Source: Podarcis pityusensis
Taxonomy: Eukaryota
DNA length: 64,000 nucleotides
Direction: 5' to 3' (one strand)
Assembly (NCBI GenBank): GCA_964106645.2
Contig: OZ067046.1
Shown piece after piece: positions 27,659 through 64,000 of the stretch (position 1 is the first letter of the stretch; each line of letters begins with the position of its first letter). Both the position numbers and the translations under genes were made by a program. Below the pieces are notes generated by a model. It did no database searches. It worked only from the letters and a program-made list of their open reading frames with translations, and was not told the DNA's origin.

Positions 27659-27783
27659 CAGGCATAGGCAAACTCGTCCCTCCAGATGTTTTGGGACTAC
27701 AACTCCCATCATCCCTAGCTAACATCAGGGATGATGGGAGTTGTAGTCCCAAACATCTGGAGGGACGAGTTTGCCTATGCCTG
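27659..27783. mobile_element. hAT MITE, near-perfect fold-back (125 bp)
   Basis: CAGGCATAGGCAAACTCGTCCCTCCAGATGTTT... / ...AAACATCTGGAGGGACGAGTTTGCCTATGCCTG, with perfect 8-bp TSD ctccagaa (27651-27658 / 27784-27791). Confidence 0.93.
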
Positions 27784-29143
27784 CTCCAGAACGTCTGGAA
27801 ATATGCTACATCAGTTAACTGTAGCAGTTACCATTTGGGCTCCCTGCAGCAACTTTTGCTACAAGGCAAACAAATACGATCTCAATTGATATTCCTCCCC
27901 TTTAATAAGCAAAAATATAGAGTGGCAATCGTGCAACACATCAAAATAAAAGCCAATATGAAAAAAGGCATCAGTGCTGTATGGCAACTATTTGTTCATT
28001 GTTCACTTCTTCTACTATTCAGTCTTTTGGGTGTTTACAACTAAAGGCTGGGAAACCAGACTTCGTGGGTGAACTATGTGGGATGGACACACTTAAAATA
28101 ATATGAACATCTGATTACAATACTCAGACAGCACACTTAGACATTGCTGTATTTTACTGACTAAACAGAATTTTAAAATCAAGTGTTTTGAGTTAGATTT
28201 ATGTATTCGCTTATAATTCACAATACTTTTAATGGCAGCCCATAATAGTCAGCAATACTCATACATACCAATAGAGCAACACTGATGTAAAAGAAAGCAT
28301 AAAAGCCCCCAAAATCGTATTCCAAACGTTGGAGGTCCCCCAGAACTGTTTTTTTTTGGGTGCAGGGAAGGAGCAAAACTGAAAGTTCTGTAGTGCAAGC
28401 ATAGGATACAACCCATCATATCTGAATACTTTCTATAAAAAGGGAAGTGGCAACAAGGAACAATGTATGCTTTTTTCATTTACTATTTGAACGCTAAATG
28501 CACATCTATAAAACTAGCTTGTGTTCAAAATGTTCAGAACTGTTGAGAATGTATGGGACAGAGCACATTTTTATGAATGTTGCTATAACTGTAGCTTTAT
28601 CTTTTACTAATGCCATCATTAGAAGACAGCAAAGGCTTTTAAATGCATTTTTGAATTATTGAAGTAACCTCAAACTAAAAGATCTCTGTGCCATGCCACA
28701 TATAGTTATTTAAGATGACAGATCTTCTGGAAGTTCCATTGTCCTGAAGTTTTAACACTTTACATTTATTTCTTGGAGACGCAGGTGCTTTAAAGGAGTG
28801 TATGGTATAGAACTCAGCAACTTAAGGGAGAAAATTATAGGTCCCATGGCTCCCACACACCCTTCTAAGATCAACGCAGTGCAAAAACAGGATATTGCAA
28901 AACAATTATGTTCCCTCAAATCTTCCCATGAAGAAGTGGATTTCACTACAATCCAGAGGCCTGCAAAATTATTTTCAGGCAATTATTTATATTCCTAGAT
29001 TCCTCTATCTTTCAGTATCAAATATTTAAAGGCTTCTTCTTAGCCACAACTTTGAATCATTAGCTTTGAATCTCAAATAGCAGGTATGTCCCTGAGGAAA
29101 GCTGGGAGAAGGCTAAAATCCTGTCCCCTGAAATCTAGCTTTC

Positions 29144-35942: not shown

Positions 35943-37761
35943 CTGCAAAGTTTGCAAAACAAAGTGTAAAATTACAATTTTCTTACAATCAGGCAGTATA
36001 AATATTTTGCTAAATAAATAAAACACACCCAAGAAGCTTTCTTCACAATTCGTAGCCTGTTTAGGACTCCAAAAATTATATTAAAATACTGAGTACACCA
36101 CACTAGTGATTCAAATGTTGATCTAGAACTCTAAAAAGTAGATCTGTGATCCCTGTAGTATGTATCCACTCACTTAACTCTGTGAAAAGCCAATTAGAGC
36201 AAGCTAGTACAATTCATACTGGTTCTGTATGCGAAAAAAGAACAAGTGTATTTTTCTGATTAAAGGGTAAAAGTGTCATTTTGGGTTACTGCTGCTATGT
36301 AGCCATTCGAGACTGAAAAAGCTCATTAAAAAGATTTCAATTCATCCTGAAAAATAGAGAGCAGATTTTAGTATTAGTCAATCTTCTGTGTGGGCTTAAC
36401 ACACAAAGAAACTTACCAATACTCTGAATAGTAAACCAAGCACAGGGCCACAATGAAATGTGAAGAAAGAAACCACTGCATTTTTTTAAAGTTGCAGGAA
36501 CTTTAATGAGGAATACTGTCCTAAGCAACTGATGAGGCAGCCAAATGGTGAACAGATAAACAGAAAGCATGATCAAGAGCAAATGCAGCAAAGTTTTGAA
36601 ACAATCATAATTCTTAAAATTTTCCATCAACAAAAATGATCAAACATGAAAGCACAGAATGATTTGGGATGCACATAATAGACTCTGAGAGCAGGGAGCC
36701 AATTCACTACCTGCTTAAAATTACCAAGTTCCATATGGACCAGTTCACACAACAATACAATTTCCTGATTCTTCATTGAAAGAAATTCTAACTTTCAATA
36801 GGTATACATGTAAATGGAAAAAACAATGTGGAAGTTATGGATCACAGATATAGCCAGTTAGCCACTCCCATATTGAAAGTGGCATTTATATACTGTAACT
36901 GCTGTGAATCAGAAAATGAGGGAGGGAATGTAAGCATGTGAGCCTGAACTTTGTTGAAATAACGCATGCAGATCACCCTTAACATGCTATGTCAACATGC
37001 AGAAGTGAGGTGCACAAAGCTGAGGGCAAGGTAATCACAGTTAGCCCATGGACACATTTTGTCACTCATTTATAAATGAGCTCAGGCGCATTAAGTTTCT
37101 CCATGTGAGGAGCACATACATATGGGAAAGATGTAATGTGTCTTTGAACTAGCTATTTGAGGAAGAAATCCATTAATGGTTACTTATACTACATTTTCCT
37201 AAGCTGAAATATGCTGCAAAATGACATAATAAATTATACACCCTAAGCACAAAACAGCACCATTAAAACACACACTGCCCCTTCTTTTGCAATCTAAAAT
37301 CTACTGACTACATAATGAGCAGCACACATAACAATGAAATTCGAGATCTTATTGTGTGTAAATCTTACACACGTGTTGCATTTCTTGCCAATTTCAGCAG
37401 TTCTATTAGGAGATGACCAATTCAAATAACTTCAAAGCAATTACTTAATAGCCAACTTTATTAAGAAGTTCACACAGTACTCAAAATAATCTTGAAGAAG
37501 TAAATTTTAGAAAAACAAATTAGGTTCCTTATTACATGTCACTATTCCAAAAGCCTCTCTTCATCCCAAGGGGTCACTGTAGCAGAAGGAGATTAAATTT
37601 TCAAAATGCACGTCAGTCTCTTAAGACTTCTAATTCTGGTAAAATGCCAAATCCTTTTACATTTGAAGCACTGGAAACAGTGCTTCCTCTTAGCCAACAG
37701 GCCAAGAGAGAATGCTTAGCTTGCATCTGTGGGATCTAAACTGCAACTATGAAATACAAAC

Positions 37762-47316: not shown

Positions 47317-49516
47317 TCCTACACAGAATGACACAATGGGAAGGGCTGCCCCCATTTTTTCCATAGATCCATTCTGTAGCAGCATATTGCAACACTGCTA
47401 GGCTGCAAATTGCAGCTCCACTGACATAAAGTGGCAGCAAGGCTTTATAAAATCTTTTAAATAAACGCCCTGCCACATCCTCTCATATTGGTACGTTCCT
47501 TCCCCTCTGAAAATTAATAGATCTGATCTCCCTCAATAGTTTTTGAAAGTGCTCTCCTACTTTTACAGAGGCAGCAGATGATTCTACAAACATTTTATGG
47601 GCACAGCCAACCAGCCAGGTATAAAACATAAGACTTTTTCAAGTCTGAAAGAGGTTATCCCTCAAACCACACAGCCTATACCAGAGCAGCCCCTAGTGGA
47701 CACAAAAGTATGTTACAATTTCATTTTATTCATGCAGTGTTTATTTTACAATAGCAATCCCTATTCGGCAAGAATATTTCACTTAACAATGTCAGCCTTG
47801 TAAATAAGCCAACAAAAGTTGCTAGCCTGCTTATGGATAATTTTAATGGGAGCATGATACTTTTACATATCCAGAAGATAAGCCCTAATAACCAACACAC
47901 ACCATATTTGTAGGTCTCCTGCAGCCAGAAAAAGGTGCTCTTTGCAAAAAGGAGTAACACAGAAAACATTCTAAGAAAGTTAAAAATAATTAACTTCAAA
48001 AAAAGCATGCAAAACAAGGACACATATGCAAAAGATTTCTACACCCTCAGCACTGATTTTCATCACTTATTACTTTGACCGGCCTCTCCATAGCCACCTA
48101 GACGAACCTTTTTTCATCCTTCCCATCAATAACAAACCTTCAGAATTCAGGCTGCAACTCCATACTCACTTACATGGGAGTGAAGTCAATGGGAGCTTAC
48201 TTCTGAGCAGACATCTAGGACTGCCGCAACACTCTGCTATCCTGCCATTTACAGTCACCCCACCACCACTTGCTCCCACACCTCCCCTATCACTCTCAGC
48301 AAAGAAAGCAATACTTAGATATTCTTTTCCTCCTGTTCTCTCAAATCACTGCAGCTACATTAATTGTCTGATTCACAAAGCAGTTAAGACAGAATCCTCA
48401 AGTTCAAACTGACACGGCATCATGATCCCATCAGTTAGTATCAATGGAATGCCATTTCAAATAGCAATCATAATCAACGGGTGCTGGAGGGAGGTGGCAG
48501 CACATTCCTACTTTGCTTGCAAAACATACTGGTCCCGTGAGTCTGGTGCTGGAAGGGAGGTGTTTGTGGGTGGGTGGAGGCTGAAGCATGTAGCTCTTGC
48601 TCTCCTCCCCATCCCTTTGTGGCTTGAGGTTGGGAAGCCTTGTGCCTCATGTACTTGCAGGCACATATTCTCATCCTGCCTGTATTAACAAGCCCTACCT
48701 ACCCAAGCAAAATTCCTGGTCACCACAACTTGATAGAAATGAAGTATATTTCAAGTCCCAGAAAGCTAATGTTTCAAAATACAACTAAAGTTGGAGTCAA
48801 CAAGGAGAGAATAACCTGAATAGTCTAGCAGTCTAATACGTTCTCAGATTCTCTTATTTATTCACCTGGATATTGGACTTTCCTTATTCCCAACAATCAA
48901 AACAAATTATACTCTAGAAAATATTAAATGAAATCTACAAATAACTTTAACTGCAAGAAATTAAAACATTACAGCATCTTACTCTTTATGTTTTATTACT
49001 TTTATAGAGTTATTTGCAACATATCTTGCGATTTGAAAGGATAAAACCTATATTCATCTCTAGACAAAAGGCTGGCAAGCCTTCTCCAAGCAGGAGAACA
49101 TTAGATTAATCTAGGCAATACTTTCACCCTATAATTTGCTTGCTCCAGGCATTAATCTAATTTGATTATTAGTAAAATGCTCAGAGATTTAATTTACACT
49201 ATACTTTTATCATCACCATCATTATTTATTAATATACATGTGTTGCCCAATGCAAAATGCCACTAGGCAACTTACAGTACCACGAATTCTGTTTTTTAAA
49301 GCAAAAATAATTTTAAAAGCAAAAAGTTTTTTTAAAAAAACTAACAATAGAAAAACCCCATTTTGAGCTGATCTAAATATGTGCAAATTCATCATTCAAA
49401 AAGTAACACTCCCCATGAAAAATATTAAGCCACTAGCTGAGAAAATATATTAAACTCAAACACTAAAAACCATTGCTATTATACATATTGTTAAACTGCT
49501 TAGTTATGCCTCATAC

Positions 49517-49609
49517 CCTGTTATAGTTGTGCTCATGTGTATCTTCAAGTTCTCCATTACTTGTCACAGAAATCTCTGCTGCTGAATTTTTTGGAGATTC
49601 TTCAGCCAT
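49517..49609 (-). CDS. ARFIP1: Arfaptin-1 first canonical coding exon (exon starts at 49618)
   Basis: tag|GAGTGTTCA-ATG: MAEESPKNSAAEISVTSNGELEDTHEHNYNR|gtatga. The eight exons total 1125 nt = 374 aa plus stop, with consistent phases. Confidence 0.96.
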
Positions 49610-50430
49610 TGAACACTCCTATAGTTTGAAGAGAAATATGTTGAGTGTTATAAAATGATATTAATATTAAATGTTTACCTATTTCGCTAAACTACCACAT
49701 TTCACTGAACCACAAAGAGGATATTTGCAGATCCCAACACAATGATCCTATGAAACATGCTTGTTAAATTATTCAGTCTCCTAAACAAAAAGCAAGCAGT
49801 AGATCAAGTACCCTTTGTTCAGGTCAGTCTGCTCCCACCCCAGTGCTAGACACACATAAAAACAACTGATGGCCCACATAGTAACTTCTGCCTCCTAGTC
49901 ACAGTACATTAGATATTCCTGTCACTTAACATTACCAAACAGCATAATATTTATATTTACTTTGGTACATGGCAACCCTTTTCAGTTATCAAAAGATGCT
50001 CACAGGACTTAAGAGAACTGCACCGCATGTGAGTCATCTGCCTCTTGTTGTGCAGCCTCAAATATTAATGCCCGTAAGGCTGATGAGTGAATCTGATCAA
50101 GCACCTGATTGTCACAGTGCCAGGTAAAACTCTAGTTTCCCCAGCTTCTCTATAGAAGTGTACATAAGACTAAGGCCAACCAACGGCTGTTCACTTACCT
50201 CCCATGGTGTTCCCACATTAACACTGGAGTATTATAATAGGTTATATATTTAATCTCAGCAGATGTACAATTTTGATACTGTAAACAGCTGAATAAGTAG
50301 TTTACGGGCAAACTGTTTCCTCTTTCACACAACACCTGCAATTTTATCAGTCAAAACTCATGTAACTATGGCATCTGTTTTTATAAGGTACTGAAAGCAA
50401 ATAAAAAGACTAATGCACACGTATAAGCTA

Positions 50431-50734
50431 CCGTATTTTTCGCTCTGTAAAACACACCTGACCATAAGTTTTTAGAGGAGGAAAACAAGAAAAAAAATAT
50501 TCTGAATCAAATGTTGTACTAAACTATTTAATAAACAACCCTCTCCCTCTCTGCACAGTGCCTCTCCTGTGAAACGGGAGGAGGAATGGTGCCCCTTCTG
50601 TTCCTCCTCCTGCTTCGCTGGGGCGCTGCGCAGCTCTCCCTCTCTGCGCAGCGCCATTCACTCCTAAGACGCACACACATTTCCCCTTACTTTTTAGGAG
50701 GAAAAATGTGCATCGTCTGGAGCAAAAAATACGG
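50431..50734. mobile_element. Tc1/mariner-type MITE
   Basis: TA-CCGTATTTTTCGCTC ... GAGCAAAAAATACGG-TA. Confidence 0.85.
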
Positions 50735-51279
50735 TAATATGAAAACACTACATAGCTATTATCTCTTTAGCTCATCTTTGCAAAACGGCATATGCCCCAT
50801 GGGCTAGAGTATCTCTCTGCATCTTCTGGGTTTTGTTAGATTGTGGAAGGACCTAACGAAGAGTCCACATAACTATGTGGTAAAAGCCTGAACCAATCAA
50901 GTCACCACAGAGTACATCATGCAGAGTGACCAGTGCTGAAAGTGCTAAGACACTAGCTGTATTAGTTAAGCCTGGTAAGGGTAAACTGTAAATTACAATT
51001 TATGACATATTGTAATAGTCATTCAAGCAGACCTGCCTTGCAACAGATCAGGTCACATCAATCAAATGTAGCATTCAGTTCTTAAAGCAATGGCATGGTT
51101 TGCACGTCATATTAAACCATAGTTTTAACCACACTATGGTTTGATGTATGCTGCTTAATAGTTCCCAAGGCACTCCTCTCTATGGCTTCTACTAGTCTGT
51201 TCACTTGATGCTGAACCACGATTTCATAATATATGCTAGCAAAATCCTTACCTACTGCGGTTGGTTTCATATACCCAGT

Positions 51280-51520
51280 TGGCTATGAAGCTCTCTGTGT
51301 GACTTTGGGTAAGTAATAGTCTCTCAGCCTAATCTAATTCACAGGATTGTTGCAATGATAGAACAGACAGAAGGGAGAACCATGTACGCCACCTTGAGCT
51401 CCTTAGAGAATCACAGAATTGTAGAGTTGGAAGGGATCCCAAGGATCATCCAGTCCAACCCCCTGCAATGCAGGAATCCTGCCCACAGAAAAGTTGGGAT
51501 ATAAATGCAATAAATAAACA
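51280..51520. mobile_element. MIR-like SINE (+) interrupted by a CR1/SINE tail fragment (-, ~51408-51480)
   Basis: gtgactttgggtaagt...tctcagcctaatctaattcacaggattgttg, then agaattgtagagttggaagggatccc...ccctgcaatgcaggaatc, then the SINE tail gggatataaatgcaataaataaa. Confidence 0.6.
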
Positions 51521-54124
51521 AATCTTTTCTGTTTTCTGCCAGTAGACAGATTGTAGAAAGAAGGCTATCAGTTATGTACTTCTCTCTTTGATCATGTATG
51601 TCTCCTGAATAAAATCCACCTGCCAACAACATGCAATCCTATGTTCATGCTAGGAAATAAGGTATTGCATCACTTTCCGTAGGTGTAATACTTTTTCTAT
51701 GATGTAATCAAAAGCATTGCTCTATGCAAAAACAAAAAACAATAAAAACAATAAAAAGTTTCTCAATACAAATTAAAAGACACTTCATAAAACTTTAGTA
51801 CACACTATAAAATCTACAATGCATTATATGACTCTGGAGGCACGAGTAGCCTTTGAGCCTACAGCTATACAATTCAGCGCAATAGCACCATGTTCTAAAA
51901 TTTAAGAAGCCTAAACACAAAATGCCCAAAATCACATCAGTCAGGTCAAAATTTAACCAGCTATGATTATTTTAAATACTTTTATATCACAAGTCTTGCT
52001 TATTTAGGGTTGTGTTCCCTGTTTTCTCAAAGCCAAAGGGAGACACCACCAAACTGTACTGAAGTCTGACTCAACATAAAAACTTACCCATGGCACATTC
52101 CTATGTAGCCTGCAGTCTCCTCATCCCCCTCCACATACTTTTAATCTGGTCTGCAACACATGTGCTGTCTGTGAGGGATGCCAGGTGAGCTTAAGGAAGA
52201 CAGATTGCTCTGCCCCTGCTTTGGTAGTTTCTGAGGTGGATGCAGAGGAAAAGGTTTATCTTCCTCAGCAGTGAGCAGGGAAGCTGAGTGAACTTCTGGA
52301 AGAAGGAATGAGTGTCCTACCCTTCCTATCACATCTCACTTTACTGGGTGGAAAGGGGACTTTCTTGTGTTTTGATATTGTGATTTTATCCTGTGAACTG
52401 CCCTGAGACATGCAGGTATGGGGCAGTATACAAATTTATCATCATCATCATCCTTCATTTACAGCCAGTACATGTCTATTCAGAAGTAAGCCCCACTGAG
52501 TCCAATGGAACTGGCTTCAATCCCAAACACACTTATGTAGTGTAGTGGTTAGCAAGTCCCTTTAGGACCAAGGAAACCAGAATTTGAATCCCCACTCAGT
52601 CATGAAGCTCACTGGCTGACCATGCATAATGTCGTGCTTTGATGGACCCGACCCCTGCTAGAGTGAAAGCAGCATGGAAGATTTTTGTGCTCCACATTCA
52701 GCCACGCAGACTTCTCTCCCTTCTTACCTTGGGCACTCACCAGAGACATGCTTTGCCACTGCCCTGGTGATGTCCATTTTCCCCACCTAAATGAATGACA
52801 CTTCCTTCCTATGGGGACAAGCTGCATTTCGGGATAAAACAAAGCCAAGCCTCTACTCCCAACACTGAGTAGCCACTACTCACAGGGTTCTTTACAATGT
52901 ACAGACTCTTCCTCCAACATTCGCAGTCAACCATCATGTGAAGCAGTTTACAAGTTAAAAAGCAATTCATTAGAGACTCTGTTGGGCGCAGCCACCTTCG
53001 CCTGATGTTTGTGTTTCTCTTGATCGAGTCATTCCAGAAAGAGAATGTCCCTGCCCACTACTGACATGCAGCTGCCAAGAGATCAGCACCAAGTGGGAGT
53101 ATGGCCCCTTATAGAAAAACAGAACTTCCCACAACTGTTCTAAAAGTTGCAGGTGTAAGCTCTGGTGGACTGCACTATGCAGAGCTTGCCATAGTACCAG
53201 GGACACAACCAACAAGGCTCTGTCCTTATCCAAAGAGACAACTAGCACAACTGACGCAGCAACAACTGGATATAATCACCTGAAAGTGGCCTGGAGCATT
53301 TTGCACCAGTTGTAGCTGTTCAAGGACAGACTTAAGAGCAGGATTCAGCCATTTTCTTGTGTTCCACATCTTAATAGGACACTTTGCAAGAAGTTACTCA
53401 AGCACCAAATAAGCTCCTTACCCGAAAAGGGGAAGCTGTGCCCTTACAACAAAAGCTGAAACTGTAATAGTCTCTCAAATTCAGGATGAGACTAGGCAAC
53501 GTTTTCAATCTCAAAATAAGTGGTAGCCAAAGATCCATATTATGAGGGTGCAAATACCGGAGATAGGTATGTTATCTCCCCTGTCTTCTACCTGGCCGAC
53601 TGAAAGCTTTTCAGCTAGATCTTGCCAAAGAACAGCAGTGGGGGGTTATTATGAGATTTTATGTACCAGAGCATAGTGATGAAAGACTTATCAAACCATC
53701 TAGCATCTGTGATTCTATCTTATTATTAATTATTTCTCTATAAACACACAAGAATCTGGATCAATAAGTTCACAGAGGTCTGTCATGTGTATCTTTCCTG
53801 AAAAAGCACCAGGTGAGCCCAACCACCAAAAAACCTGTGGGGACAAAAATGAAGCTAAGGGACAACAAGAACACTTGCAAGGTTATCTATAAAATCCTTA
53901 TTGTTCCTATGCTCTGACAGAATACTTTACTGTTTAATGGGGCAATACAAAATCAAATGTAAAAATTAATTTGTTTTCAGTTAATCATGTTTTGAATTTG
54001 ACAAATAATATTCTGTTATAATCAAGAACAATTAAAAGAGATTGGTTCAATTTTCTCCCCAGTCTGAGCCTGTTACTGATTGGTTGATTTTAAATAGCTA
54101 CAACCACTTGTATCACCCAATCAC

Positions 54125-54204
54125 CTCAGAGTCAGACTGGAGTTCTTCTGGAGCCTGGTGAAGTTCATCAACAGTTTCTGGATTCTTGCTATTTTCTGAC
54201 ATAC
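54125..54204 (-). CDS. ARFIP1: Candidate alternative ARFIP1 exon with upstream in-frame ATG (54202)
   Basis: cttatttcactttcag|GT ATG...: MSENSKNPETVDELHQAPEELQSDSE|gtgatt. The phase-0 end joins exon 49618 (GAG TGT TCA ATG) in frame. Confidence 0.6.
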
Positions 54205-55202
54205 CTGAAAGTGAAATAAGTTGAGCATGCATTGAGTTCTTCCAAGTAACTAAATTATGTGCTTTAAGGAAGTTCCTTCAAAATATTTACAAACCTTTCC
54301 GACTATATGTATCCAAATTAGTACACTTTTCATTCACTAGCAAATGTTATCATGAAATGTAAATTACTTTTACTCTCTTTCATAACACAAGGGACAGAAC
54401 AACAAGAGAATAGTTAAGGGCTCCCTCAGCTAAACTAGAACTACTAATTAAAAAATACAAATGTTCCCAAGCAATCTAAAAACAAATAACTATTAGTTCT
54501 ACCTATAGATCAAAATGCTGAGACTAACACAATAAACTCAAGGTCACAATGCTGTATACCAGCACCTGAGAACCTTTTTCAGTATTAGATATCCACAACA
54601 ATATTTTAGATACAGGTAATTTACAACTTATGCACATTTAACCCTAACCCTGCCCCTGCTCCCTTTCCGGGGCCAAAATCTGCAGCACACGCCAATCAAA
54701 CCTACATAGCCTCATGACTATCATTTTGGAACTGAAACAGGGAAATCCAAAAAGTGGACAGTACTTTCTTCATAACAAGGGACTTTTTTAGGTTTGCAGA
54801 AATGTTTTTAGTTGTAAGGGGGGAAGCCCCCAGAAGAACCTAATCCTTAATTCCCAGGACCTACAGAATACTGAAGGCAGCTGAGATACAGAATGTTGAG
54901 TGTTATTAGATAAAAAGGGAAATTGTTCTGGGTGAGCTTGTAACAGCTCTCAACGTTCTATAATTGGGATTAATTAGGGGGATTAAGGTCAAGGAGAAGA
55001 TTGTCATGAGGTTAAAATAAGGCTCTTCTCCAAACTATACAGGGAGGTTTCAGGTGAAGGAGGAGCAGAAGTAGTACTATTTTTCTTTCCCTCTCCAGAA
55101 ACCTCCCCCAGCCCCCGAATTTTAACGATGGATAGATCAGTCCACTTGTGACCTGGGTCAATTTTACATGCATTTACTCTTAAGTTTGGTCAGTCCTATC
55201 TC

Positions 55203-55710
55203 TTTTTTTTTTTTAAATGATATTTATTTCAGATTTAAAATTACAAAAAAGAAGAAGAAAAACCATACAAAATACAAGGAAAACTTTAACCGTAGAATAA
55301 ACAAATAAAAAAAACCCAATAAAATAGAATAAAAAAGACTTAACAAAAGATATAAAAATACATTAAGTTAAAATAAAACAAAAACAGATTAAACCTTTAC
55401 TTAACCTTTTTCCCTTTACTTATTTCCATGACCTCCTCTCACCTCCCAATTTTGTATTCTAGTTCAGATCGTATTTCCAGCAATTCCTTCTAACCTTATT
55501 TTCATTTACGTATTTTAAAATTTCAAATAATGTAATTAAACTTCCTCCATTTCATCAAATTCAACAACTCATTTTTGCTTAGTCCATTATATCATATCTA
55601 CCAAAACGACCTAATATTCTTTTTCCGACCTCTTTCTAACATTCTTTTATATTGCAGTATTTTTGAAGATATATTTTGAATTTTTTCCAATCTTCTTCCA
55701 TCGACCCTTC
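55203..55710 (-). mobile_element. 5'-truncated L1-like LINE with poly(A) tail and TSD
   Basis: The minus strand encodes EGSMEEDWKKFKIYLQKYCNIKEC*, then a ~430-nt 3'UTR, AATAAA (55228-55223) and A12. Perfect 9-bp TSD tcctatctc (55194-55202 / 55711-55719). Confidence 0.85.
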
Positions 55711-58024
55711 TCCTATCTCAACATTAATCTGATTTTAAAAAGAAGTCCATACAAATATTCATATTTAAGTATGAATTTTATCTCAATGTACATATTCCTA
55801 AACTTTCTACCCTAAAGCACATTTTTAAACACATGCTGGTACATTTTGAACCAGGATCTGTACTGCAAAATTATGTTCCAATTCATAATTTAAGCCTGCG
55901 AGATACGAATTAGGTCATCTCCTTTAAAAATACATAGTCTTCATTTCTACCACTCTGATACACAGCAAATTGATCAGGTTTGTTGATGATAGTCCACCCA
56001 AATCTTTTAGCATTATATAGCACAAGAGGAAAATGTTACAGGAAGGTGGAAAAGAAAGAAAGAAGTTTTCCTTTATGCTGCAATTTACCATCCTCTTCAC
56101 ACAAGCCCTGACTAGTGCTATAAAGCTCCTGTTCCAGAACGATTAGATCCATAAACAAGAAGGATCTTTTGGAAATTGCAGAAGACTATGCTGCATACTA
56201 TACTTTCTTATTTAATATGTGTATGCTCCCACTTTTCCTGATTAAAAACCCTCCCCTAAACCTAAGTTTTCCTAGTTCCCTGCCAAAACTGAATGCTGAG
56301 CAAACACTCTGTAGGAAGGTTATAGAGGGGAACAGGAAGACTGACTGCTGATGCCTTCAGTGCCTATTTACAACTAAACTCAAGAGACCTAGAGCATCTA
56401 AAGGCACTATCCAACTAAGGCTACAATCCTAGCCATGTCTTTTTTGAAGTAAATTCACTGAATTCAATGCAGCTTACATTCAGGCATGTGAGGTTAGGAT
56501 TCCAACCTTATCTATACTCAAGAGTAGACCCACTAAAAGCAATGGACCTGTCCACTGCAGGAATCATCATTTCAACACTATAACCAATTTAGAATGTTTT
56601 ATTTATACTGTATCTAATTAAAAGTATTTCCATCACATGGCTACATTACCTAGCATACAAGAACATGCTGAACGTAAGATAGTGAAACTGAATCACATGG
56701 ATTACATTACACTGATGTACATCTTGCTACATTATCATAGCCAAAAGGCAGCACTTAAAACTTTTCAAACCTTTAACAACTTTTAAATGCCATTTTAAGT
56801 ATATAAACTCACCCGCTAAAAAAGAAGTTAATGTTGGCACAATAAAATTAGCAGATATTGCACTATGCACTTGAAGCACTTCAGAAACTTGAAAAAAAAT
56901 ATAATTGTTAAATATTTGAGTCTCAAGGAACAACACTAGTCCCCTTTCTTTTCAGATATGCAGGCTGCTGGAAAGCCCACACTGTTTCACCCCATATTCA
57001 GCTCTTACTCCTTGCTGCTGCTGTTGAAGACTCTGACCATATGGTCTTACCATTCTAGACCTCTTTAAACCCATTGCCCCTTTCTTTCTCTTCTTCCATC
57101 AGTTCAGAAAATATACACTGAACTTTAAAAAAACAACAACAATAAAAATCAGGTCTTGTCAAAGACCTTTACTTTATGTGTAAAGGGGACATTATCAACT
57201 TGAATATTAATCTAATATTAAACAAACTTTCACTTCATAATAAATGACATTGTGTCAATCACAATAGAGAAAATGGAGAGAATTTTCAACAAGCGGAAGT
57301 AGTTACCATTAATCGCTGTTCTTCCGAGGACTGAGGAAGTTAAGCAAAGTTCACTGCAAATTAGTATGTTTAACAGTGTGGTTTTACATGATGCCTTTCT
57401 AACCTGCCAAGAACCCACAAATACACTAGTGGTAAACAGAAAATTAAATGTGCAGGGAAGGCTTCCAGTAAGTCAAACTATGCAAGTAAATTTTTTTTGA
57501 AGCATTTCTTTCACGGTTAGCACCAGCCTGCATCTAACTGGTGTGGTCAGAGGCGGATTTAAGGGAGTGTGATTGGTTCACCTGCGCTGGGTGCCAAGCT
57601 GAGAAGGTGCCACAGGGGAAACCACAACAATGACTTAAAATGGAAGGCGAGAGGCAAGGGGGTGCTGAATTTTGGTGTTGCACAGGGCACCTCTGAAATT
57701 TGAAAACCCGAAGTCTGCCACTTGTGGGATGTAATATGAGTAGGTAGACAGAAACAGGATTTTGCGGGTGAGCATACATGAAGCAGTGACTTGGCCATGT
57801 TGTACCACACATCAAACAGTTCAGGCAGCCTGCCACATCCAAGATTTCATTTAGGTTATGCTGAAACTCAATGTAGCAGTCAAGTCTCATCTGTTCATTG
57901 CCTTAAAGAAGCATCTGAGTATCTTATCTTAGGTTGGATTAGGATTTGCTATATACCTCTTCCCATCATTTCCCTGTAAAACTCCCCTTCCTTGTCAGTG
58001 GGTGTAAAAGAAGAACACCTAACG

Positions 58025-58282
58025 CATGGATAAGCAAACTAAGGCCTGGGGGCCGGATCAGGCCCAATCGCCTTCTAAATCCGGCCAGTAGACGGTCCGG
58101 GAATCAGCGTGCTTTTACATGAGTAGAATGTGTCCTTTTATTTAAAATGCATCTCTGGGTTATCTGTGGGGCACAGGAATTCATTCATATATATATATAT
58201 ATATGCAAAATATAGCCTGGCCTTCCACAAGGTCTGAAGGACAGTGTACCGGCCCCCTGCTGGAAAAGTTTGCTGACCCCTG
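58025..58282. mobile_element. Second copy of the Charlie-like hAT element (cf. 47006-47316)
   Basis: Colinear with 47006-47316 and ends AGTTTGCTGACCCCTG. Contains (AT)n. TSD not recognisable. Confidence 0.85.
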
Positions 58283-60263
58283 ATCTTGGCACAGGAACAA
58301 ATAAAGTCTCACTACCTACCAAGCCGAATCACAATTTGTGGACCTGGAAGCACAATTAAGCAATCTAAAATATTCCAGTTCTTTTACCAGAAATCTCAGA
58401 ACTATGTCATATTATGAATCATTACGATCCCATAATATATGCATGCTATAAAGCCCAGAACAATTTCCTTCAATAAAACAATATCATAATGGCAGAAGGT
58501 AGACTATATATATGCCATTACTTCCTTTTCACACTAGCTGCCTAGTTTTTATTTATTTTTAAAAGTTACACCCTGGGTCTCAAATATAGGCTTTATTTGG
58601 TTCTGTTGTTTCTGCCTTGTCTTTTTTTTTGTTTTTATGAGCATATTTTAATATTGTGTGTTGCTCTGGGGGCTTTCCAAAAAGCTGCCTAAGATTTTAA
58701 AGAAAAACACTGGTGGCAACTGCTGCTCCTTGTAGCATGTTATTAAGCATAAAACTGTAAGAACTTACAAATATATATACTGTACAGCAAACATCATGGA
58801 ATTAAAGCAGAAATACAACACAGAATTACGTGCATGCTTTTGTGATTAGCCTTGTGTTTAAAATGTTTGCCTCTAAAGACACAGGAAACATGTCTTAAGG
58901 AACAATAAGCTATGACCTCCACATAAAACTGAAAGGAGAAGCATGCATGGGGCAGGTGGGGGGGGGACATTCTTGGGCAAATCCTCCAAGTTCTAGTCAT
59001 CTATAAAACCAGAAAAGCCACAATTCCAGAAAGAGTTGGTACAATACACACAGAGTAGTGTACTCTGCAAGATGAATGCTGCGGTATAAGATGTGCAAGA
59101 GGAGACCCGAGTACATTATTCAACTAAGCAGCAGCCACATTTGTGCATCTCACTGTATTTTCAATGTACCTGCAGAAACCATTCCATGTCTGTTTCCTAT
59201 GGATGACTACAGTATTTCCTAGCTTGACAATCAGCTTCACGTACTGACTTTAGAGACGTCACTTCCACCCTAACAATCTTTAAGAACTGATCCAATATTA
59301 AATTTCTTCATAAGAAGACATAACTATTCAAGTTTTAAATCCCAGACAGTACTGAACTACAAGTTCCATTTCACAACGAAGAAAACCACCTTTGTGTGAA
59401 CATAGCCCCAAACCTTTCATCTATAACTCATCCAAATGGCTGGGAGTCATGGATTCTGGGGAAGCAGGGCAGAAAGCAGAGTGCATGGCCAGAATACAAC
59501 CCCTGAGCAAAAACAAAGCAGCAGCAACTTCACTTTTGGAAGTCAAGGGTGTGAGCACCAAGGAACCTAAAGATTTTGTGTGTTTTTTAAAGGCTAAATA
59601 AAGTGAGAAAGAGAAGAAAACCAAAAAGGGCGTTTTTCCATGAGCAGCTTTGTATTTCTCCGCTGAGCACAAGTACTTCCTCCTGGGCACAAACACATCA
59701 GCTTTACACCTGCCCTTTGCCCCACCCTCCAGGAGATAAAGACTAGGAACCCTGAGTGCGCACCAGGATCCCCTTCCCGACAGGCCTCCCAAGCGGATTT
59801 GTTACCTAACAGGCGAAGGTCTAATCTTCTCGCATCATCCTATACCTCCGTGCTGTGACATTTAAAAAATAAATAAAAATAAAGCAACACCTGTTGAGCC
59901 ACTGCCTGCCAGGCAGGCTGCAGCGGATAGGAAACGGTCTCTTCCGAGAAAGAGCGAAATGTGGGGGGACGCGCCCTTCCCTCATACGTGGCCTAGGCCC
60001 CGGCTGAAGCTCCGGGGCCGCAGCAGGAGGAGGCCAAGAACACCGGCCTGGCGCCGCGGGCGAGGAGGAAGGAGCGGAGTAACGGGAGAGGCGGCGGCGG
60101 AACGAGAAGGGCTTCGGCGAGGGAGGCGCTGAGGGCTCCGCGTCGGTCCTGTCTGAGGGGAGGTTTTTTTTGGGGGGGGGGACACGGCGCTCATCTCTTC
60201 GTCACCCCCGCCCACAGCAGCCACCCACCACACCCTTCTTCTCCTCCTCCCTCCCTCACTTGC

Positions 60264-60460
60264 CTTCAAGCTCGGCTGCTTCCAGCTGCTCCCCCCGCAA
60301 AAGCCACGGAAACACGGCCGAGCAGCTTAAACGGAAAGGGCTCGCGAGGAAACGGGCGCCGGTTACTTCAGCCTCTCTCTCTCTCTCTCACTCCCTACCC
60401 CCCCTCCCCGCCCTGCTTCCCTCCCTGAACGGCTGCACCAACCGGAACTGCCTGGCCGGA
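60264..60460 (-). other. ARFIP1: Putative non-coding exon 1 of ARFIP1 (5' end approximate)
   Basis: The best donor in the island is AAG|GCAAGT (GC-AG type, 60263-60258), with overlapping CAA|GTGAGG 4 nt downstream. Confidence 0.5.
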
Positions 60461-60546
60461 AGTAGAGCGTCCGCTTGCTGCTCTGTAACCTTCCGAAGGG
60501 GCCGCTCTAGGCGGCGGCAGCAGCGAGGGGCCGCTTCCACGTTGCT

Positions 60547-61519: not shown

Positions 61520-63341
61520 TACACGAGACTTCAGGTGCTGCCGATGGGCCTCCACCGCACCTGATAACACACACACACACCACCTTTAATATAGCTGCAT
61601 TCCCCCCCCTCCTGCCACCACCATGGAATCAACAGCCCAACCCACCTTCCCTGCTGGGCTGCCAATGTGGCGTCTAACCTTTGGAAGGGCAGTGGTGCCA
61701 CTTTAGAATAGGACTGACCTTGATTGCCATCTGTGGTGGCCACCATCTTTGGATCGCATAGATCATTGTGTTCTGGGTAAATTAAGATGGTGGGCAGCCA
61801 CCATAGATGGGACCTAACCATGGCTTCCAATAAAAAGCAGCAGTGCCATCCACTGCTAAGACACCACCAGGGGAGGGGGGGTATCAGTGAGGACAGTGAG
61901 TGGTGGCATAGCTGAGTTGAGCTGCAGTGAGGTCCTCAGCTAGTGTGCCAGGGCTGCATGTAATTAACATCATGTGGAGAAAAAGTAAGGCTGCATACAC
62001 TAGTTCTATTCAGTGGTCCCTGCTTAGGAGATATGCACCTAATTCGTAGACAGTGTGGGGGCAAGCCTGGCACACATGCTGCAATGACAGGGCTAGCACA
62101 CATGGCCCTGCTCTTTCTTCATGTACTGTTGATTGCATGGAGAATATCATGGCTAAATAGAATTCAGTGAAGAATGCGAGTTGGAATCAGAGTCTATATT
62201 GTGGCTGGAATAGGTTGGGAGGGGCAGTCAACTGGGCTCTCTATTGATGTAAGAGGAAGTGGAATAATGTGCTGTACTCCTTTTTTCGGGAGTAAAGTTA
62301 CATTGATGGCAATGGTGGAAACAATGGCTGAGTGAGTGTAGGATTTGGACTAAGCCACCTGCCCAGCTTCCACACTTCACCCATTACAGGCTCTTTCCCT
62401 GTGATCAGTCCTGACTTTTCTGCATTCAGCGTAAAGGCCTGAATAAAATTTCAAAGCATGTTCAGCTGAGTGCATTCTCCCATCAGATCTTCACATGGAA
62501 TGCTTGATAGGACATGATTCTACTTTTAGAGCACAAGTGGTGAACCTCGTGCCAAATTTGTCCCTACAGGGTTCTCTGTTTGGCCCCCAGGACTCTCCAC
62601 AGGCCACACCCCTCACCAGGCCTGCTCAACACCCTCCTTGAGTGTTTTGCCCTGCTAGAATGTGCCCTTGAACTCTGACATTGTAGAAGAGAGAGGAAAG
62701 CATGAGTATATGGAGAAACTAGCCTTCTGGTTAGTTGCTCTGCTCACTTTTGCCTCAGACTTCACCCCCCACTGGCCTGTGGCCCCAGAAGACTGCTCAG
62801 AATAGACAGCAGCCCTTGAGCTGAAATAAGGTTCCCTAACCCTGTGCCAGGCATAGAGTGGGGCACCAAAGATCCATGTTAAAACACCTACTGCAACAAA
62901 TAGACACATCTGTCAGCAGATCTCTCAAATTAAAGCAGCAGTACTGACAAGTTTTACATATAGTACAACTGTAGTTACGTTTCACACTTTATTTTGATGT
63001 GAGATAAGAAGATTCCTAGTTGCAAAGTACTCAATTCATTAGTCCACATGTTTGAAACTCAGTCTAGAGAAGTTATGGAAAATATTCTTATTGGGCAAAG
63101 ATACCAGAAGGGCTTGTTTGTGCTCATTCCTTAGCTGTGTGCTTGTGATATACAAGAATATACCCATGGCATTGCTACTCTAACTCTGTGACGTTTATTT
63201 ATTAACACAGTGACGTTTATACCATGAGATCAGGGTACTCATTTGAAAGCCAATCTAATTAAAGCACTTGAGGATAGCAAGGTGACAGAACGAATGTCTC
63301 TAGATGCATTTGAGCCTCTGAGGGAGTTTGGGGGTTGTACC

Positions 63342-64000
63342 ATGGCAGAGTCTTCAGATGCTCCCTCACTTCTGCCTGCAGTAAGGAAGAAGAAAAGCTT
63401 ATCAATCAAGGACAAAATTAGTATAATAGCTGCAATAGAAAGTGGCAAGAAGAAGGCAGATATTGCGGAAAGATACGGTATAAAGAAAAACTCCTTGTCC
63501 TCCATCATGAAGAACAAAGAGAAAGTTTTGGAAGCCTTTGAATCATGGCAATTTGACCCTAAAAGAAAAAGGTTAAGGACTGCATTTCATACAGATCTGG
63601 AAGAGGCCCTGGTGAAGTGGTACAGAATGGCTCAGTGTTCAAATATACCAGTGAATGGGCCGATGCTACGCTTCCAGGCTAATGATTTTGCACAGAAACT
63701 TGGACATAACGATTTTAAATGCAGCAATGGTTGGCTAGATCGTTTTAAAGCAAGGTATGGACTGGCATTCAGATCTCAGCCAGTTGTAGCTACTGCTCAT
63801 ACTACTCGTACCACTGCTGCTACCACTACAGAGGATACAGCAACTGCTTGGCATCAAAATATTCTGTCTTACTATTTAAAGGTTTATCAGCCAAATGATA
63901 TATTTAACATGAAGGAGACAGGATTGTTTTATCAGATGTTACCTAGTGCTACTTTTACATTTAAAGGAGAAACATGCTCCCTGGGAAAATTAGGCAAAGA
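63342..64000 (+). CDS. TIGD4: Tigger transposable element-derived protein 4, partial (runs off window end)
   Basis: Uninterrupted ORF from ACCATGG: [82 protein letters not shown]...[37 protein letters not shown]...[15 protein letters not shown]. This gives psq-type HTH, CENP-B HTH and the start of the DDE_1 domain. It matches recalled TIGD4 and is head-to-head with ARFIP1. Absent from the ORF track because it has no stop in the window. Confidence 0.95.

Follow-up and report, generated by a model that had tools for sequence, protein, structure and literature searches.

An optional ARFIP1 exon with an in-frame start codon, probably a regulated and directly skipped cassette exon of amniotes

A stretch of 64,000 nucleotides from Podarcis pityusensis (GCA_964106645.2, contig OZ067046.1), hereafter the window, contains the ARFIP1 gene for arfaptin-1 on the minus strand. 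The gene was recognized because a 403-residue lacertid isoform maps on the window as nine coding exons between 54202 and 26554. The subject of this work is an optional exon within intron 1 whose start codon would extend the N-terminus of arfaptin-1 and which is probably a regulated cassette exon. Exon 1 is non-coding; its 3' part (60264..60363) is an ATG-free stretch that ends in AAG, and a contig piece covering 60263-60363 is joined to exon 2 (49517..49618), in which three codons precede the canonical ATG (49609-49607). The joint 49617/60263, with three letters of slack, was found in all four RNA runs and is compatible only with a GC-AG intron of 10,645 nucleotides (49619..60263) whose donor is AAG/GCAAGT (60258..60263; the slash marks the splice boundary). 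Another donor, of the GT type, lies four bases past this GC donor (60258-60266, minus strand), but the joint listed takes the GC. The AAG end of exon 1, from which the preliminary description of this DNA had expected an AAG/GTATGT junction to arise with the optional exon, was read at 60264 and is borne out by the reads.

The optional exon (54125..54204, 80 nucleotides) leaves 6,059 nucleotides of the intron upstream and 4,506 downstream. It opens as CAG/GTATGT, with two untranslated bases ahead of 26 codons, MSENSKNPETVDELHQAPEELQSDSE, and the donor-like hexamer GTATGT (54199..54204) contains the upstream ATG (54202-54200). The acceptor (54205..54222, AG at 54206-54205) has pyrimidines at 11 of 15 positions, the longest run before the CAG being four. 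At the other end, the exon's own donor, GAG/GTGATT (54119..54124), stands in phase 0 and has no G at +5. The acceptor directly followed by a donor-like hexamer, the in-frame ATG, the length and phase of the exon and the three exon 2 codons are all as the preliminary description gave them; its "29 acidic residues" hold for the length (26 residues from the optional exon and three from exon 2) and not for the acidity, since aspartate or glutamate takes only nine of the 29 places. The AG/GT motif alone is at chance level in the window, where a pyrimidine-rich YAG with a strong donor occurred once, the average over 30 Markov-resampled windows being 1.0, and the exon was judged real because it is conserved, not because of the motif. 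A search of the animal's own genome disclosed no second copy of the exon and hairpin regions, and Rfam around the exon gave three matches, all far under the gathering score.

The exon and its 29-residue extension are not new, as both are already annotated in databases. An open-frame search led to five lacertid arfaptin-1 isoforms, and lacertid records match the 26 codons at 96–100%. Residues 1–62 of a lacertid isoform and residues 1–48 of a platypus isoform used as queries gave 27 and 164 proteins, respectively, 120 of the latter being listed, and cluster look-ups added more. N-extended records such as XP_028599076.1, XP_053259068.1, XP_039769749.1 and XP_068259007.1 have the same exon and the same peptide, and differ from the present account in being automatic models without an attached mechanism. 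The resulting set of 318 arfaptin-1 records, which was fetched using the extension and so is biased, and which consists mostly of automatic predictions, comprised 206 with the extension under a strict pattern, 35 starting at the canonical Met, 43 with another upstream piece and 34 that did not match the pattern; nine of these 34, among those printed, visibly have the extension. Carriers include squamates, turtles, a crocodile, birds, monotremes, marsupials and many placentals, lemur and colugo among them. Simian and vole isoform X1 records (P0196, P0197, P0204, P0193, P0205) are without the extension, lemur, colugo, squirrel and Peromyscus keep it, and the absence possibly reflects lineage losses. 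No human record was among the arfaptin-1 records listed, and the single frog record is without an N-terminus.

The length was exactly 29 residues in 194 of the 206 extended records, and the annotated carriers always open with Met-Ser. Across the distinct 29-residue sequences, Ser2 occurs in 98/98, at a position left free by the search pattern, and Glu19 in 97/98, while the middle varies freely and an S/T-x-x-D/E motif lies within the last ten residues in 86/98; M1, E26 and the residue classes at positions 3–4 were fixed by the pattern. Between lizard and bird, 16 of 26 residues are identical in the exon and 222 of 237 in the AH region (lemur, 10 of 26 in the exon; range in the AH region, 222–224 of 237), and omega comes to about 0.48 over 25 codons. 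At its end the extension has SDSEE, which looks like the acidic cluster of furin, SDSEEDE (given in a passage of PMC5584140), a likeness that is a resemblance only. In an AlphaFold model of the 403-residue isoform with a mean predicted local distance difference test (pLDDT) score of 55, residues 1–44 and most of 1–148 fall below 50, and this low-confidence N-terminus fits nothing more specific than disorder.

Database models also bear on the upstream border of the exon. In boa, platypus, birds, turtles and a bat, the frame of a spliced upstream exon continues through G-M-S, and therefore the acceptor should sit two bases before the ATG. Forty records allow the residue ahead of Met to be read from in-frame upstream sequence; it is Gly in 29, Ser in seven, Cys in two, Ala in one and Tyr in one, the last two being snake records (P0181 Ala, P0190 Tyr) that are exceptions to a G at +1 if their junction is identical. 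Nine models, one each from lizard, python, turtle and opossum and five from birds, start at an ATG 30 bases upstream (54230..54232), in frame with the exon, and continue across the unspliced acceptor. Eight of the nine begin M-H-A, which fits conservation in sauropsids of the overlapping TGCATG (54226..54231), a putative RBFOX-type motif 22–27 nucleotides above the exon; the opossum model begins M-N-T, and TGCATG is absent from it. As an observation in its own right, the last 28 intronic bases (54205-54232, minus strand), open in the models of these nine species, could add ten residues if retained.

A second lineage was provided by a bird-like locus, L002, one of two (L002 and L003) found by a degenerate pattern scan of metagenome contigs. 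Its peptide is identical to five bird records. The scan fixed the upstream ATGCATGC, AGG and ATGTC and left the T at +2 and everything downstream free, so that orthologues lacking the motif would be missed. L002 keeps CAG/GTATGT, the length of 80 nucleotides, both ends, both flanks, the acceptor features and a weak own donor, GAG/GTGACT. The exon is identical to that of the window at 61 of 80 bases, and the 19 differences are all confined to its central 52 bases (post hoc probability 7e-5); alignment holds for about 30 bases on the upstream side and 60 on the downstream side, and is lost in the remaining intron. Since the differences are central and the flanks alignable, the constraint lies more on the exon ends and flanks than on the peptide. 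L003 was rejected as an orthologue and taken as a chance pattern match. A pattern scan of viral contigs gave 88 loci, and blastn over all 91 loci left only L001 and L002 related. These comparisons describe a putative cassette exon with an in-frame ATG, a conserved frame and a conserved flanking intron. The conservation in reptiles on which the preliminary description had depended is also there, in many amniote records for the extension and in L002 for the motif.

RNA reads of a related organism over 49395-60494 came from three raw runs (X21, X23, X24), about 6–12 in 100 of each being read, and from a contig set (X1); joints with at least three reads were listed, and 24 joints lie outside those shown. 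The skipping joint, which links the GC donor of exon 1 to exon 2, had seven reads in X23, five in X24 and 30 in X21 (19 starts), and stands on an X1 contig of depth 126; it is the only gene-like joint among those listed. In each of the three raw runs the bin of the optional exon had about one read (depth 0.17–0.25), and the adjoining bin 54205-54574 had a depth of 0. In the runs examined the exon is mostly skipped. An X1 contig over 54078-54435 is unspliced across the acceptor and passes the donor at depth 3, like other intronic contigs, and looks like pre-mRNA or DNA. No saw-tooth profile was seen along the intron, where coverage is almost nil or dominated by repeats. Both forms of the isoform are nevertheless represented, skipping by the reads of all four runs and inclusion by database models of many species that also list canonical starts.

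The one new element is a predicted hairpin that would mask the exon's own donor. A conserved block downstream of the exon is complementary to the exon end and the own donor: the predicted 5' arm (54112..54140) takes in the last 16 exon bases, the own donor and the bases behind it, and the predicted 3' arm (54059..54088) is intronic. The 85-nucleotide region folds in the lizard at -37.6 kcal/mol (z -5.8, 0 of 200 shuffles as good) and more weakly in L002, at -24.6 kcal/mol (4 of 200 shuffles as good); 19 base pairs are shared, the arms being conserved and the loop diverged. By z it ranks third among gene loci (3,358 windows, of which the 94 with an energy of -28 or lower were z-tested), and the two loci above it are repeat-like, one a near-perfect inverted repeat and the other a locus of piled-up repeat reads. 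Folding of the acceptor region gave no stable structure (z +0.8 and +2.2). Within the predicted stem lies a second donor-like GTGA, eight bases past the own donor (54109-54116, minus strand) and also found in L002, whose use would shift the frame. Elsewhere in the gene, a near-perfect inverted repeat in the last ARFIP1 intron (27660-27790; an 85-nucleotide window at -72 kcal/mol) is probably a small repeat element, and another stable predicted hairpin (37639-37723, minus strand; z -5.7) lies about 40 bases behind the donor of exon 5. The preliminary description had mentioned neither the predicted hairpin nor the upstream UGCAUG, the GC donor or the prior annotation.

The reading preferred here, at a probability of roughly 60%, is a regulated, amniote-wide ARFIP1 cassette exon with an alternative in-frame start that is skipped directly. 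Exon 1 would be spliced straight to exon 2 in one step and the optional exon bypassed, the predicted hairpin would likely cause this skipping by hiding the weak own donor, and the upstream UGCAUG would likely add repression by RBFOX. Upon inclusion, translation is predicted to begin at the upstream ATG and to yield arfaptin-1 with 29 more residues, probably a disordered acidic tail; after splicing a G stands at -3 of this ATG, the position used by the Kozak rule as a criterion of start context, and leaky scanning past it would still give the canonical protein. The reading draws on the sequence, its conservation and the dominant skipping joint of the four runs. Direct skipping in particular is favored by the GC donor upstream, the broken pyrimidine tract and the nine models that join the exon to exon 2 but leave its upstream side unspliced, and these count against recursion because recursion needs the upstream intron out first.

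Several points weigh against this reading. No inclusion joint at 54204 or 54125 was among those listed (at least three reads, partial runs, another organism), and for that reason the case for inclusion depends on predicted database models. Because the mRNA is identical after direct and after recursive skipping, the reads do not tell the two routes apart, and a masked own donor would equally favor the regenerated donor. As for the hairpin, the shared pairs show compensatory changes in 0 of 19 and a one-sided change in 1 of 19, with two sequences to compare, the window was picked after the fold had been seen, and a wider L002 region is no stabler than its shuffles (z +0.6). The own donor is unpaired at 0.25 in the lizard and at 0.42–0.45 in L002, where it is not more paired than ordinary donors, and three constitutive donors reach 0.24–0.25 at one flank size. 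The TGCATG, moreover, is one of eight copies in the intron, and was a fixed part of the search pattern behind L002.

Recursive splicing as the main route is unlikely. In it, exon 1 would first be joined to 54204, the resulting AAG/GTATGT would outcompete the weak hairpin-masked donor, and a second step would remove the exon with its ATG. Against the donor consensus the regenerated donor matches seven of nine positions, including the G at +5 that the own donor does not have, and in a computed part-spliced RNA it has the higher openness, 0.43 against 0.25 for the own donor, whereas a crude U1 duplex rates both alike at -6.8 each. GT and ATGT are kept in L002, with +2 free in the search pattern; the Gly, Ser and Cys residues before Met are compatible with a G at +1, with which the two snake records would misfit if their junction is the same; and Ser2 is invariant although the start context would gain from a G at +4. 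The hexamer may yet be a by-product: the usual acceptor consensus supplies G at +1 and T at +2, the start codon occupies +3 to +5, and +6 comes from the Ser, a residue that may serve N-terminal processing. No lariat or part-spliced intermediate was seen, nor a listed joint at 54204, in the four runs at their low depth. Passages of PMC6224609 define a putative recursive splicing exon (RS-exon) by an upstream junction that regenerates a 5' splice site above a MaxEntScan threshold (5.52 in human), which AAG/GTATGT would very likely pass, and the defined exon with its own downstream donor is present here, alike in L002 and joined to exon 2 in annotated proteins. The RS-exon architecture put forward in the preliminary description therefore fits the sequence definition, but AG/GT marks candidates and does not prove recursion; exons starting in this way are 3.6% of human exons, and 93.8% of them are constitutive (passages of the same paper). 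The same passages state that recursion requires prior removal of the upstream intron, that a strong acceptor and a weak donor favor it, and that incomplete repression by the exon junction complex (EJC) gives physiological skipping of some human RS-exons, and at fly RS-exons the outcome is not predictable from donor strength alone (passages of PMC8605326). The acceptor fails the Y5+N0-4YAGGT motif of the lariat-supported sites of PMC10156609 by its pyrimidine run of four in the window and L002, though YAGGT itself is there. The supplements of PMC6224609 (five files, with 287 RS-lariats and apparently not the full 6,837 candidates) and of PMC10156609 (four files) do not contain ARFIP1; both are human data sets, and in human the exon may be non-coding. 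That the intron is short beside classic recursive introns, a caveat of the preliminary description, is right as to length; as an objection it was rejected because lariat-supported recursive sites have introns with a median of 3.4 kb (passages of PMC10156609). Of its proposed switch between donor and start codon, the N-extended isoform is borne out by database models, while use of the regenerated donor is unsupported; nor does a switch require that donor and ATG overlap, because plain skipping removes the ATG as well.

Less probable than recursion itself is a full amniote-wide switch, in which the hairpin would mask the own donor and a re-cut at GUAUGU would remove the start codon, and in which hairpin opening or EJC shielding would instead let these six bases serve as the start of an arfaptin-1 with a furin-like phospho-acidic tail, possibly altering its role in sorting at the trans-Golgi network. 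It is improbable, too, that the optional exon is the 3' part of an alternative first exon driven by an intronic promoter, perhaps with the M-H-A ATG, so that promoter choice sets the N-terminus: the nine read-through models and the X1 contig unspliced over the acceptor would suit it, but the depth of 0 just upstream in the three raw runs, the passage of that contig through the donor in the manner of pre-mRNA or DNA, the AT-rich region (GC content 0.37) and the many models that start with M-S, often behind a spliced upstream exon, do not. Least credible of all is that a conserved RNA element merely brings incidental low inclusion, with a functionless peptide and annotations spread by homology transfer. 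The fast divergence of the peptide, the simian and vole models without it and the near-zero inclusion in the runs examined agree with such a by-product; frame, length, Met-Ser and acidic end are, however, kept in all amniote groups, with the caveat that a protein search detects intact frames only, and some extended records lie on Logan contigs (P0078, P0249).

Known systems resemble parts of this arrangement. Stems over a 5' splice site occur in tau exon 10 and SMN2 exon 7, and the predicted ARFIP1 stem, with arms of about 30 bases, is longer. Dual-specificity splice sites have a parallel in the genomic CAG/GTATGT, by itself the best U1 match tested (-8.3), though its use as a donor for an upstream exon was seen in no read or model. 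Intrasplicing in protein 4.1R reportedly removes an upstream AUG and changes the N-terminus, the acceptor there being regenerated or re-used, and is said to have been demonstrated experimentally. In ARFIP1 a donor would be regenerated, and the likeness lies in a first-exon-dependent two-step splicing that sets the isoform (10.1101/159350). EJC-repressed annotated RS-exons (passages of PMC6224609) are alike in the strong donor regenerated upstream, the weaker own donor and the alternative exon, whereas the ARFIP1 acceptor is not strong, and its putative regenerated donor overlaps the start codon. Cryptic RS-exons of very long introns (Sibley 2015, through passages of PMC5126111 and PMC10156609) share YAG/GT, a downstream competing donor and a conserved first-intron site, but lie in introns of about 550 kb at the median, and their inclusion reportedly brings premature stops; the ARFIP1 intron has 10,645 nucleotides, and the exon adds an in-frame start and a conserved coding frame. 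With RBFOX-repressed cassette exons ARFIP1 has in common the motif and its place, an upstream UGCAUG, and as upstream RBFOX sites promote skipping (passages of PMC5840707), skipping is predicted.

Two features of the neighborhood deserve mention. In the lacertid isoform X2 records (P0002, P0004, P0005), 22 residues inside the AH domain are missing at the end of exon 35942-35721, which suggests an alternative donor in this exon. On the plus strand, the open frame 63228-64000 resembles a Tigger-derived protein, which we take to be TIGD4-like, and stands head to head with ARFIP1 across a GC-rich region at 60–62 kb.

A literature search found no paper on the optional exon or its extended isoform, and the ARFIP1 passages of PMC11544703, PMC9554796 and PMC13009247 do not name the exon. 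Arfaptin-1 isoforms 1a and 1b differ by an internal exon of 32 residues (passages of PMC4366199), and the human-centered papers may describe only these two because the listed simian models are without the extension. Without proof of recursion the element would be an ordinary, well-conserved optional exon. It would nonetheless offer a compact test case of donor competition, with the start codon, the regenerated donor, the weak own donor and the predicted stem within 150 bases, each separately changeable in a chicken or lizard minigene. If the reading of a directly skipped cassette exon is true, it would add an unstudied N-terminal isoform of arfaptin-1 that is kept by most amniotes and missing from the listed simian models.

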